From a virus (Duplodnaviria > Heunggongvirae > Uroviricota > Caudoviricetes): DNA of 64,000 bases. How positions within the stretch are numbered: position 1 is the stretch's first letter; each line of letters opens with the position of its first letter. The stretch covers positions 53,051 to 117,050 of the IMG/VR virus record IMGVR_UViG_3300012347_000482; one strand, given 5' to 3'. Under the pieces are notes generated by a model. It was not told where the DNA came from. It made no database searches and saw only the letters and a program-made list of their open reading frames with translations. Position numbers and translations under genes: made by a program. This document shows positions 8,854 to 25,271 of this stretch, piece after piece.

Positions 8854-10245
8854 ATGAGAGCAAGAGAATTTATTATCGAGTATGACCGCGGCATGACCCT
8901 CAAGTCATGGGAGCAGAAACTAACCGCACGAATGGCTAGTGATGAATCGGCACCTGGAACTATTGACGAAATTATGGAAATGATTGAGTCAGCTGATCCA
9001 ACAAGAAACAAAGTATATGCGCAATGGATTGTCAAGCGATATGTTGCTGGAGATTTTGCTGCTAGTGATCTTGATCAAGTGAATTTGCGATTGACTGATT
9101 ACGATAGTGTGAAGAAATCACTAACTACGGGTAAAGATATTAATCAGTTGACTTATGCACAACTGCCCGATCTTATACAAGCAGGCAAGGCACAAAAAAC
9201 AGCACCCAAATTTGAAATCATACCTGACACTGAAGTGCTGTATAATGGCCCAGATGGACAGTTAGCCGTGCCCAAAACTGAAACTGCAAGTAGGGCATTG
9301 GGTAGCGGTACTGCTTGGTGTACTGCGTGGACTAATAGAGACACAATGTTCGATCATTATAATTCAAGTGGTGACATTTATACGTGGAGAGCTAAGAATG
9401 GCAATAAATTCCAATTTTTCTGGGGTAAAGATATTCAATTCATGAATTCGGCAGACTTGCCGCTATCTCCAAAAGATATGCATTTTTACAGATCAATCAA
9501 TCCTGTAACTGCTCCTATATTTGCTAGAGAAGAACAGAAAATTCTTAACTCACGCAATGCAAATAGAATTATAAAACTTATGACTGCACTTAATAAATCG
9601 AGTATTAAGCTAGAAATTCCAATAGAACTTCTGAAAAAAAATCATAAGATAGCATACCATTATGCCAAAGAGATCATTGGAGGGCGATGGCTAACAGGCG
9701 AAGCGGTAATTGCATCTAATGCCACCTCTTCATACAAGTATGCCAAGGATGTTATTGGAGGGCGATGGCCAAAAGGCGAAGCGGTAATTGCATCTAATGC
9801 CGGCGTTGCGTATAAGTATGCCAGGAGTATTATCAAGGGTCGATGGCGAAAAGGCGAAGCGGTAATTGCATCTAATGCCGGCGTTGCGTATAAGTATGCC
9901 AGGAGTATTATCAAGGGTCGATGGCGAAAAGGCGAAGCGGTAATTGCATCTAATGCCGGCGTTGCGTATAAGTATGCCAGGAGTATTATCAAGGGTCAAT
10001 GGCCAAAAGGCGAAGCGGTAATTGCATCCAACCCTTTCGTTTCGTTCATTTATGCTAGGGATGTTGTTAAGGGGAGATGGCCAGCGGGAGAAGCTGCTAT
10101 TGCAACTAGTTCCCATGCTTCGTACATTTATGTTACGGAAGTTGTTAAGAAGCGATGGCCAGCGGGAGAAGCGGCGATTTCTAGTGACTCGTGGTCCGCA
10201 AAAATTTACGATCAGCAGTTCGGTACTAACTTAGCTAAGCAATAA
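8854..10245 (+). CDS. repeat-protein family member A1 (type-A N-domain + 26-aa repeats + FGTNLAKQ tail)
   Basis: MRAREFIIEYDRGMTLKSWEQKLTARMA...GSGTAWCTAWT...YTWRAKNG.KFQFFWG; about nine RW(P/R)xGEAVIAsn..v.YkYA repeats; ends KIYDQQFGTNLAKQ. Confidence 0.85.
   Translation: MRAREFIIEYDRGMTLKSWEQKLTARMASDESAPGTIDEIMEMIESADPTRNKVYAQWIVKRYVAGDFAASDLDQVNLRLTDYDSVKKSLTTGKDINQLTYAQLPDLIQAGKAQKTAPKFEIIPDTEVLYNGPDGQLAVPKTETASRALGSGTAWCTAWTNRDTMFDHYNSSGDIYTWRAKNGNKFQFFWGKDIQFMNSADLPLSPKDMHFYRSINPVTAPIFAREEQKILNSRNANRIIKLMTALNKSSIKLEIPIELLKKNHKIAYHYAKEIIGGRWLTGEAVIASNATSSYKYAKDVIGGRWPKGEAVIASNAGVAYKYARSIIKGRWRKGEAVIASNAGVAYKYARSIIKGRWRKGEAVIASNAGVAYKYARSIIKGQWPKGEAVIASNPFVSFIYARDVVKGRWPAGEAAIATSSHASYIYVTEVVKKRWPAGEAAISSDSWSAKIYDQQFGTNLAKQ
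9697..10086 (+). repeat. 78-bp tandem DNA repeats (5 copies, 3 near-identical) encoding the 26-aa protein repeat
   Basis: GGCGAAGCGGTAATTGCATCTAATGCC... unit recurs at 9697, 9775, 9853, 9931 and 10009. Confidence 0.85.
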
Positions 10246-10274
10246 CATACATATAACAGAAGCATTATACTTAG

Positions 10275-10299
10275 TAGGCTCTTCGGAGCCTATTTTATT
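10275..10299 (+). terminator. intrinsic terminator (copy 3 of 3 identical)
   Basis: TAGGCTC-TTCG-GAGCCTA followed by TTTTATTG. Confidence 0.8.
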
Positions 10300-10874
10300 G
10301 ACTGAACGTTGTTTATTGTATATACTTAACATATATTATAAAAATAATATACAAGATATTTACAGCTCGCACTGGCTAATTTCGAGTGCCTACGACAACT
10401 GGACCACGGGTCACAGGGACAGCAAATCTCAAAGATATCCTTGAGTACTCAGCAACTATCCTTGACAGGACGACGATTGGACATGCCTTCCCATATAACC
10501 AATTTTGCTGTTTGAACGGAATTAACAAAAAGGCTAAAGAGGGTTAATAACCCACGACTGTTTGCACGATAGCATGTGTAATTCAGTTGGCCGTCATTAT
10601 TAAGACGATGCTAGAGGTACAGGATGACCGCCTCGGTAATGCATTAATGCTATGTGATAGAAAGCAACTCAGATGAGAATTTTTATTGTTTCTTAGCCCG
10701 CCAGGGCTAAGTGTGACTATGCAATCTAGATGAGTGTAATTCACTGCTCCGCAGCTAAAACAATTAATAATATTTAATAAAAAGAAAAATGCAATTAAAT
10801 GAACAGAAAGAAGCGCAGCGATTGATGTGAATGCAAATTGCAAATGAGCGTTAGCTCATTTAACTACATTAGTA

Positions 10875-23994: not shown

Positions 23995-24028
23995 TGACAA
24001 ATACTTAGATAGAGTTGTCTTATATAAT

Positions 24029-24056
24029 CGCATAAATATCGTATCTAAGGATATTT
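24029..24056 (+). promoter_or_regulatory. late-promoter-like leader
   Basis: cgCATAAATATCGTATCTAAGGATATTTATG. Confidence 0.5.
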
Positions 24057-25271
24057 ATGCGATTAATAGAACTTTTAAGAGAAGGATTTCCAGAAGCACA
24101 TACTGAATTTTCACAAGTAGCCAACCCAGCTGAGGTAAAGCAAACTATTGAAAAATTTAGACAGCTAGTTGCTAGCAATAAAATTAAGTCAACTACTCAA
24201 CCCGGCCAGCCTAATAATGCCGACGTTCGTAGCATCGACCACTGGCGTAGGCAAGGGTGGGATGCATTTAAACAAGCAGTTGCTGATGCTGAAAATGTTA
24301 TTACTAAAACTCAAATTAAGAGACAAACAGTCAACGGTAATAGCATCATTCTTGTTGACGACGATAAATGGAAGGTTGTTATTCCTTTAGATAAGAATGC
24401 CAGTTGCTTTTATGGTAAAGGCACTAACTGGTGTACAGCAAAGCCCATGCAATTAAACTTTGAACAATATTTCTATAGAGATGCAGTTACTTTAATTTAT
24501 TTTATAAGCAAAGATTCTCCAGAGCGATATGCTATTGCTGCTGACTTTGTATTTGGTGAAGATACTGAATACTTTAATAGAGTCGACGATACTATAACTG
24601 AAAGTCAATTTGAATCGGCAATTGGCGAGGATCTAGACATTGATGAAATATATCTAATAGCTGGAAATTCAGAGAATATAAGAAGATATGATAGAGCTAG
24701 ACTGCAGTATGACACTGCAGAAGATAATTTAACAAAGTTGTTAATCGAGTGGCCGTTAAATAATAAAGAAATAGAAAAATTATTATCTTTTACCAGATCA
24801 GAAGAGTTGAGTACTTCGTATATAGTAAAGTATTCAAAAGAAGTAAAGCATCCAGTTATTGTACCCGATCTAGTATTGCTATCAGCTGCAGAGTATGGAC
24901 AAAAATTGCCATTTGATTCTCCGGTACTCAGCAATCTTGCCAAGGCTATTGATTTTTCTAAAATTCCCGTAGCAATAACTACTATATTGTTTCGAAAGTA
25001 TCCAAAATTAATTATAAAAGCGTACGATCGTTTGCCACAATCACTAAAACAATTGATAATAACTGTACCCAATGCAGCATTACAATATGCAATTAGTATT
25101 GTCAACGGAGAATGGCCAGCTGGAGAAGCAGCAATTGCTACTAGTGCCGATACAAGTTATAGATATGCCGAGCGTGTAATTAAAAAGAGATTCTTAGCAG
25201 GAGAACCTGCTATTGCCAAAGACCCGTACTTAGCGAACGAATACAATAAACTGTTCGGTAATGTTCTTTAA
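24057..25271 (+). CDS. repeat-protein family member B4 (divergent N-terminus MRLIELLRE; two repeats; truncated tail)
   Basis: MRLIELLREGFPEAHTEFSQVANPAEVKQTIEKFRQLV...WRRQGWDAF...YGKGTNWCTAKP...VTLIYFI; WPAGEAAIATSADTSYRYA / FLAGEPAIAKDPYLANEYNKLFGNVL. Confidence 0.8.
   Translation: MRLIELLREGFPEAHTEFSQVANPAEVKQTIEKFRQLVASNKIKSTTQPGQPNNADVRSIDHWRRQGWDAFKQAVADAENVITKTQIKRQTVNGNSIILVDDDKWKVVIPLDKNASCFYGKGTNWCTAKPMQLNFEQYFYRDAVTLIYFISKDSPERYAIAADFVFGEDTEYFNRVDDTITESQFESAIGEDLDIDEIYLIAGNSENIRRYDRARLQYDTAEDNLTKLLIEWPLNNKEIEKLLSFTRSEELSTSYIVKYSKEVKHPVIVPDLVLLSAAEYGQKLPFDSPVLSNLAKAIDFSKIPVAITTILFRKYPKLIIKAYDRLPQSLKQLIITVPNAALQYAISIVNGEWPAGEAAIATSADTSYRYAERVIKKRFLAGEPAIAKDPYLANEYNKLFGNVL

Follow-up and report, generated by a model that had tools for sequence, protein, structure and literature searches.

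The 64,000-nucleotide stretch of DNA analysed here, hereafter the window, comes from a virus of the class Caudoviricetes (positions 53,051 to 117,050 of IMG/VR record IMGVR_UViG_3300012347_000482) and carries, between positions 8854 and 25271 of its + strand, ten consecutive paralogous genes, g1 to g10, whose products combine a short N-terminal leader, one of three N-terminal domains (A, B or C) and an array of a 26-amino-acid (aa) helical repeat. We read this array as a late-expressed multigene family whose proteins are incorporated in the particle, likely in the head, and are probably delivered to the host with the DNA, an interpretation to which we give about an even chance. We favor late expression and packaging because the T4-like leader is also found on unrelated genes and is accompanied, for most genes, by a TATAAATA-like motif ~27 nt upstream, and because gp205 of phage PA5oct, a homologue of domain A, has been found in virions by mass spectrometry and domain C models with a weak ADP-ribosyltransferase-like fold.

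The array itself is defined by the listing of open reading frames (ORFs) and by typing with hidden Markov models (HMMs) built from the window paralogues, both of which bear out a first-pass annotation, made from the letters alone, of ten related consecutive genes on the same strand with N-terminal domains of type A in five, type B in four and type C in one. Type A is found in g1, g3, g5, g7, and g8 (mutual identity 60–82%), type B in g2, g6, g9, and g10 (37–50%), and type C in g4 alone. All ten reading frames are intact, no family remnants or degraded copies are found in the intergenic gaps of the array, and the paralogue pattern is far beyond chance. The proteins span 385–737 aa and isoelectric points (pI) of 4.5 to 9.6. 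The start of g7, earlier placed at TTG 19489, is corrected to ATG 19513, and g9 starts 9 nt past g8. The genes are listed below, with absences given for a 261-kb relative in ENA (ERZ4200885 NODE_16).

8854..10245, + strand: g1, type A, 463 aa, 8 repeats, tail FGTNLAKQ
10902..12407, + strand: g2, type B, 501 aa, 5 repeats, tail FGTNLAQR
12435..13631, + strand: g3, type A, 398 aa, 4 repeats; missing in the 261-kb relative
13633..14010, + strand: small ORF, 125 aa, start MRLSQLFEN, GNAT-like motif
14097..15281, + strand: g4, type C, 394 aa, 4 repeats; the N-domain models weakly as an ADP-ribosyltransferase-like fold
15309..17009, + strand: g5, type A, 566 aa, 52-aa double repeat units; missing in the 261-kb relative
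17215..19428, + strand: g6, type B, 737 aa, 2–3 repeats, then four GYF_2 domains
19513..21078, + strand: g7, type A, 521 aa, 8 repeats
21106..22263, + strand: g8, type A and the most divergent, 385 aa, 3–4 repeats, acidic, pI 4.5
22273..23994, + strand: g9, type B, 573 aa, GTG start, 8 repeats, variant tail
24057..25271, + strand: g10, type B, 404 aa, 2 repeats, leader MRLIELLRE, tail FGNVL

Every one of the ten begins with a 9-residue leader of the pattern M[RK]xxE[FVL]IxE, in the forms described at first pass: eight genes have MRAREFI[IVF]E, g4 has MRIYEVITE, and g10 has the form listed above. In g6 the FIVES of the leader is duplicated (segment MRAREFIVESFIVES, 17215–17260). The same pattern heads five clear ORFs of the window that are unrelated to the family, with the small ORF at 13633 as a weaker sixth, against a chance expectation of about 0.02 leader-type N-termini per 100 genes by our own rough estimate.

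2820..3290, + strand: non-family ORF, 156 aa, leader MRIYEIINE
7724..7966, + strand: non-family ORF, 80 aa, leader MKIFEVIQE
25341..26444, + strand: non-family gene, leader MKIREIITE; GNAT-like N-terminal part and GH19 muramidase/chitinase domain
31050..31322, - strand: non-family ORF, 90 aa, leader MRVHEFITE, CATAAATA upstream
45613..46302, + strand: non-family ORF, 229 aa, leader MRIEEIVTE

Since codons vary among these leaders while the peptide pattern persists, selection acts on the leader peptide. Its likeness to a capsid-targeting signal, pointed out at first pass, holds on comparison of MRAREFIIE, and of MRIYEVITE followed by AR, with the N-termini of T4 ipII and ipIII, which read MKTYQEFIAE followed by A in NC_000866. 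MKTYQEFIAE is the capsid-targeting sequence (CTS) of T4, removed in the prohead (PMC8442874, PMC5694885), and the T4 internal proteins are a diverse anti-restriction set, otherwise unrelated, with only this tag in common (PMC3012670). Elsewhere, homologues of the family carry leaders that are particular to each phage, such as MKVKHITQYLFE, MRLREFTTILE, and MRFYQILRE, and all end hydrophobic-x-Glu. Among the non-family carriers, the protein of 25341–26444 is a candidate virion-associated lysin; its N-terminal part has a GNAT-like QxxGxG/A motif and a weak likeness to the small ORF at 13633–14010. The block of leader-tagged genes is flanked by an AlgH-like DUF179 gene (26474–27013, + strand) and an amidoligase_2-like gene (29125–30498, - strand).

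Consecutive genes of the array are separated by a junction of ~90 nt that is conserved in DNA as TTTGGTACTAATCTNGCACAGCNATAA-CATAAATATCNTATCTAAGGNATAT-ATGAGAGCAAGAGAATTTAT, exemplified by the one that joins g2 to g3.

12381..12461, + strand: tail codons, stop, (C/T)ATAAATA, AAGG Shine–Dalgarno sequence, ATGAGAGCAAGAGAATTTAT

The junction motif also begins at 8827, 10876, 14070, 15282, 17188, 19451, 21079, 24031, and 25277. Within it, (C/T)ATAAATA is found 19–20 nt ahead of the ATG in g1–g6, g8, and g10, with the AAGG ribosome-binding site after it. This upstream element, present near most family genes, is TATAAATA-like; TATAAATA is the consensus of the T4 late promoter, and the (C/T)ATAAATA element is arranged as in T4 late promoters. 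Three terminator-like hairpins delimit two blocks of genes, g1–g6 and g7–g10.

8771..8786, + strand: terminator-like hairpin upstream of g1
19475..19496, + strand: terminator-like hairpin between g6 and g7
25307..25323, + strand: terminator-like hairpin after g10

The 261-kb relative, whose orthologues are 93–97% identical (97% for g10 and its orthologue P0110), provides the comparison of copy number among related phages that had been proposed as a check: it has only eight family genes against the ten found here. It lacks g3 together with the small ORF at 13633..14010, which was inserted jointly with g3, and it lacks g5, with breakpoints exactly at the junctions. The ~90-nt junction thus coincides with the sites where one of two near-identical phages has a complete gene unit and the other does not, and we infer that recombination at the junction drives gene gain and loss; deletions at the conserved junction suggest a cassette-like shuffling. 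The arrangement is close to that of the PeSL cassettes of T4-type phages (Arbiol et al. 2010, PMC2839356), in which an intergenic element of ~90–100 nt with a promoter and ribosome-binding site, and sometimes a stem-loop, flanks variable genes, and in which the insertions and deletions of near-identical phages fall exactly at the elements. The two differ in that the promoter is late-type (TATAAATA-like) here and early sigma-70 in PeSL, in that homology here runs into the coding tail and the leader, and in that stem-loops are found at two or three junctions only; the array junctions do not each hold an early sigma-70 promoter and a stem-loop.

The 656-nt gap between g1 and g2 holds an RNA element. 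A full-length match to Rfam RF01718, the Polynucleobacter-1 RNA, is found at 10364–10513 (+ strand); it scores 89.1 bits, where the gathering score is 37, and its E-value is ~1e-17 for the whole window and 1.4e-19 for the sub-region. A sigma-70-like TTGACT-17-TATACT is found in the same gap at 10298–10326. The RNA-bearing segment is an insertion or deletion, because the 261-kb relative has 27 nt between g1 and g2, and the RNA was not found in eight related loci. The Polynucleobacter-1 family is listed for Burkholderiales and for fresh-water and estuary metagenomes, its function is not known, and the match hints at a freshwater betaproteobacterial host.

The three N-domain types stand as first typed, although A and B are not independent of each other: they cross-match each other's HMMs at 1e-5 to 1e-6, have in common a GTxWCT core whose Trp and Cys are invariant across 55 homologues, and both match phrog_28193, for which no function is known. 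Judged by sequence, A and B are distant homologues. Matches to PHROG 28193 and 17056 reach 2.9e-32 and 2.2e-28 for g2, 4e-25 for g6, and 7e-11 for g1. Sequence searches of Pfam, NCBIfam, and PDB with all domain types gave no meaningful family, and neither the three N-domains nor the 26-aa repeat are in Pfam or NCBIfam. In the structure comparison that the first-pass annotation had recommended for models of the N-domains, A and B had no relative of known function, and the best match among viral models in Foldseek was PA5oct gp205 (E 2.8e-15). A PcfJ-like identity (PF14284) was considered and rejected: there is no Pfam match, and the sole signal is a Foldseek E of 5.7e-3 to one viral protein so named.

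Domain C qualifies the earlier statement that no catalytic motif could be recognized, in that its model gives a weak but repeated ADP-ribosyltransferase-like fold signal, with marginal scores, which we regard as a lead of moderate confidence. D187, H194, E197, Q200, and R178 are polar and invariant or near-invariant in the domain C family. None of 44 members has a Pfam ADP-ribosyltransferase or RES match, no PDB sequence match is found, and an R-S-E, H-Y-E, or R-E-S catalytic set is not recognizable. From ADP-ribosyltransferases of the RES-domain, diphtheria-toxin, and PARP types, the anti-CRISPR AcrF11 among them, domain C differs in having no sequence-profile match to them and only marginal structural scores.

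C-terminal to these domains, the repeat, [FW]PxGExxIA(8)YA..[VIF][LI], is found in all ten proteins, ~51 copies in total by HMM and 2–8 per protein; at first pass nine of the ten had been said to end in such an array, of 2–9 copies, and the array of g6 is internal. The repeat has a conserved framework with hypervariable positions at 13, 17, 20, and 21. Two of the arrays are still recent tandem repeats at the DNA level, that of g1 with 4.5 copies of 78 bp (93% identity, 9681–10028) and that of g5 with 4.9 copies of 156 bp (91% identity, 16038–16806); internal tandem duplication alters the repeat number. In the AlphaFold2 models of g3 and g4 (mean predicted local distance difference test scores, pLDDT, 92.7 and 92.3), the N-terminal domain leads into an alpha-solenoid built from helical hairpins. 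With its fixed framework, four hypervariable positions, and recent expansion, this solenoid is a candidate natural binding scaffold.

The tail after the repeats, described at first pass as almost invariant, is canonical (FGTNLA[QK][RQ]) in six of the ten genes, variant in g9 (FGTDLSTRHTL), g10, and g5 (FGTNLSQQ with a PTQQ extension), and missing from g6. Instead of a stop after FGTNLAQ, the C-terminus of g5 (16912–16954) has a perfect 12-bp repeat in 3.6 copies that encodes (PTQQ)n, and then a basic tail. Several domain assignments within the repeats were rejected. HTH_35 (PF13693) and Phage_FRD3 (PF05798) are summed partial matches of ~20–30 residues, such that whole-protein scores pass the cut-off in g1 (36.9 vs 25 bits) and in 29 of 55 homologues while no single stretch does; wHTH-Calcineurin_assc and InlJ_IG likewise arise from partial matches added up over the repeat. 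For DUF4116 (PF13475), there is no Pfam match in any protein of the window.

The four GYF_2 domains of g6 match PF14237 (E 1.8e-43). GYF_2 domains bind proline-rich peptides. The 379-aa protein encoded at 27015–28154 (+ strand) has an HExxH motif (HELTH) and, at its C-terminus, three PPPLPG-type proline-rich repeats, which suggests that it and g6 are partners.

Beyond the window the family is large. Domain A has 3,383 cluster representatives (50% identity) at E<=1e-3 and 1,080 at E<=1e-10, and in most of these matches the domain begins at residue 1; Pfam gives no informative partner domains for the long proteins with multiple copies of domain A. The prospect raised at first pass, that this is an already-annotated family, is therefore answered in two ways: the family is absent from Pfam and NCBIfam, yet it is abundant and has the PHROG match of no known function. 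Among isolates, domain A is found only in PA5oct and its relatives, once each. PA5oct gp205 (EST35_0205), annotated as “structural protein, ESI-MS/MS,” is 35% identical to domain A over ~215 residues (likewise 35% to g3) and begins MKLFEVFTLYE; it differs from the window proteins in being single-copy and in a C-terminal half without a match to the 26-aa repeat. PA5oct encodes a T4 gp21-type S77 prohead protease and has a T4-like portal and capsid protein (PMC7318152). Domain B is found in a tandem array of six in the 440-kb Salicola phage SCTP-2, whose gp46 is 36% identical to g2, and for domain C the one match in this comparison is a metagenomic huge phage of 735 kb. Caulobacter phage CcrBL9 is a further isolate that has the family.

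Tandem arrays of 3 to 6–7 family genes are found in IMG/VR contigs of up to 250–382 kb (6–7 in a 250-kb contig). In a 382-kb contig (L021, 10001–12337), a 778-aa protein joins domain A (3e-51) to domain C (1e-22) and repeats, and two large C-type paralogues follow this fusion. Elsewhere, N-domains of type A, B, or C are fused with DUF4116 repeats (e.g., P0117 and P0182) or with one another. Since the same N-domains occur with other repeats or fused, the modular build that had been noted for the array is confirmed and is a general property of the family. A group I intron (RF00028, 64 bits, 9537–9722, - strand) adjoins the family gene of another IMG/VR contig, L016, which is 328 kb long.

We compared seven orthologue pairs with the 261-kb relative by the Nei–Gojobori method. 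The ratio of nonsynonymous to synonymous substitution rates (dN/dS) is 0.14–0.24 for these pairs and 0.02–0.11 for flanking genes (the ligase, the DUF179 gene, and others), so the family is under purifying selection but is less constrained than housekeeping genes. With a dN/dS of 0.02, the DUF179 gene hardly varies between the two phages. There is no sign of pervasive positive selection, as gene-wide dN/dS stays below 0.25; the sole value above 1, at the C-terminus of g8, rests on very few substitutions. These values, together with ten intact frames, argue strongly against the array being decaying duplicated DNA, that is, pseudogenes or selfish repeats without function. The recent internal tandem repeats and the two genes gained or lost between close relatives would fit such decay, but the paralogues are old (37–82% identity) and have nevertheless kept their motifs, homologues number in the thousands, and the intergenic regions hold no remnants; we regard this explanation as effectively refuted.

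What we infer beyond these observations is that the proteins are packaged and cleaved, when the genes are expressed, enzymatic activity, and any role in host takeover or anti-defence. In the proposed sequence of events, each gene would be transcribed from its own T4-late-like (C/T)ATAAATA element; the 9-residue leader would dock the protein on the core of the assembling prohead, and the prohead protease would cut the leader off after the hydrophobic-x-Glu site. After ejection the N-domain would be the active module, alpha/beta with an invariant GTxWCT in types A and B and ADP-ribosyltransferase-like in type C, while the alpha-solenoid might provide variable binding specificity or packing contacts within the head. 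A bolder version, which we put forward only tentatively, is that a T4-style tag operates in a jumbo lineage far from Straboviridae on at least 15 packaged proteins, whose genes would be exchanged as integron-like cassettes by way of the tail-promoter-leader junction, with domains A and B as a new and abundant class of injected effectors; the tagged set would then comprise the ten modular proteins, the GH19 lysin, the GNAT-like protein, and several small proteins.

A number of observations weigh against packaging in the head. The 64-kb window has no gene for a prohead protease of the S77 type, a portal, or a major capsid protein, and an S77 protease scan of IMG/VR found contigs that differ from the family-bearing ones. 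The window does encode a full-length ClpP homologue (36824–37444, + strand, PF00574, 217 bits) that also matches PHROG “head maturation protease” families and may serve the phage either in an auxiliary capacity or as its head protease; if the latter, it would differ in specificity. The TATAAATA 8-mer is not enriched in the window (11 observed against ~11 expected from a rough composition estimate). The family proteins are large and not uniformly basic, unlike the small, basic T4 internal proteins, and the models of domains A and B have no structural relative of known function. In type A, residues E9, Y10, and R12 never vary and the model shows them as partly ordered, so the leader is partly an integral piece of domain A. 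In PA5oct, gp205 alone has such an N-terminus within 58 kb that include the head module, which argues that it is not a general tag there; and since the PA5oct virion proteome also held non-virion enzymes (PMC7318152), detection of gp205 is no proof of a head location.

Some of these points would be accommodated if the proteins were not packaged at all and acted inside the cell in takeover, superinfection exclusion, or as assembly chaperones, their common N-terminus reflecting ancestry, gene conversion, or the initiation region. Eight or nine paralogues, with domains only 37–50% identical, have the same initial 20 nt (ATGAGAGCAAGAGAATTTAT) and the same 30 nt upstream, as expected of a homogenized cassette; the partial integration of the leader into domain A and the absence of head-assembly genes nearby point the same way. 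However, unrelated genes of the window encode the same peptide pattern in other codons, the leaders differ from phage to phage yet always end hydrophobic-x-E, the PA5oct homologue was found in purified virions, and the promoter-like element resembles the T4 late promoter TATAAATA, which fits virion proteins; on balance we find the intracellular alternative rather unlikely. Virion association could also mean an external position, with the proteins as tail, baseplate, fibre-accessory, or decoration components whose solenoids diversify host recognition and whose genes are host-range cassettes. The PA5oct homologue is known as “structural” and is not localized to the head, the number of repeats, the surface positions, and the copy number between close relatives vary as they do in host-range determinants, and C-termini like those of tail fibres are found on DUF285 proteins of the window, which also encodes a tailspike-like protein. 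The models, however, are all-alpha solenoids with no beta-helix, collagen, or fibre folds and no PHROG tail match, fibre proteins do not characteristically have an N-terminal tag in common with a lysin-like protein and small unrelated ORFs, an ADP-ribosyltransferase-like domain has no obvious role outside the cell, and proline-rich binding by GYF_2 is not expected on the virion exterior. We therefore consider an external position distinctly improbable.

Turning to the genome around the array, a nucleotide search with the whole array against 50,697 phage records gave no match, and the DNA ligase of the window is at most 34% identical to that of any isolate phage; with a relative of 261 kb, the source is an uncultivated jumbo phage. 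The window also encodes an RNA ligase, NrdA, the GH19 lysin, homing endonucleases, tail-fibre-like DUF285 proteins, and a tailspike-like protein, together with two tRNAs, and some of its genes are typical of T4-like phages. The T4-like backbone assumed in the first-pass annotation is nevertheless not demonstrated, given the lack of an isolate nucleotide match, the ligase divergence, and the absence of any T4 head or late-transcription gene from the window. Directly upstream of the array is an HNH/homing-type endonuclease gene (8069–8764, + strand), bracketed by two near-identical GC-rich hairpins (AGGCTCTTCGGAGCCT, 7993–8012 and 8771–8786) as if inserted as a unit. The DUF285 (BspA-like leucine-rich repeat) proteins at 38179–40443 and 40400–42703 (both + strand) are large paralogues with tail-fibre-like C-terminal domains, and the tRNAs, tRNA-Arg(TCT) and tRNA-Met(CAT), are found at 6413–6636 (- strand).

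If the proteins are packaged and injected, the array would be among the largest tag-defined sets of phage-delivered proteins and would give a role to a domain family of thousands that is absent from curated databases. The leader could then serve as a handle, both for predicting virion cargo in metagenomic jumbo phages from sequence and for loading foreign proteins into large capsids, as with the T4 CTS, while the junction offers a concrete model for the gain and loss of such genes in jumbo phages.

The closest parallel in function would be IPI, IPII, and IPIII, which are internal proteins of T4, together with Alt. There, as here, a short tag ending hydrophobic-x-Glu (MKTYQEFIAE vs M[RK]xxE[FVL]IxE) is carried by otherwise unrelated proteins, the loci vary between related phages, and Alt is an ADP-ribosyltransferase that is packaged and leader-processed (PMC5694885), to which the weak ADP-ribosyltransferase-like fold modelled for domain C of g4 may correspond. 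Unlike the few small, unrelated proteins of T4, the window has ten tandem paralogues that are modular, repeat-bearing, and 385–737 aa in size; there is no sequence homology beyond the tag. Such expansion, which the first-pass annotation considered unusual, is less so than claimed: tandem families of head-protein paralogues with variable copy number are known in jumbo phages, and family B of SPN3US has 20 members (PMC5694885). That family and family A of phiKZ and SPN3US are comparable as tandem multigene sets of head or ejection proteins that vary in copy number, but they have no sequence relation to the array (no window protein has a Pfam match to PF12699, family A) and are without the build of N-domain and solenoid. 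Propeptides of the phiKZ type are mostly longer than 100 residues, with S/A/G-x-E-type sites. The Dar proteins of phage P1, head-packaged protectors of incoming DNA (PMC12810830), are similar in concept only, with no homology, common tag, or tandem paralogy. As we read it, the array works like the T4 internal-protein/Alt system and resembles the head paralogues of jumbo phages, and by sequence it is a member of neither.

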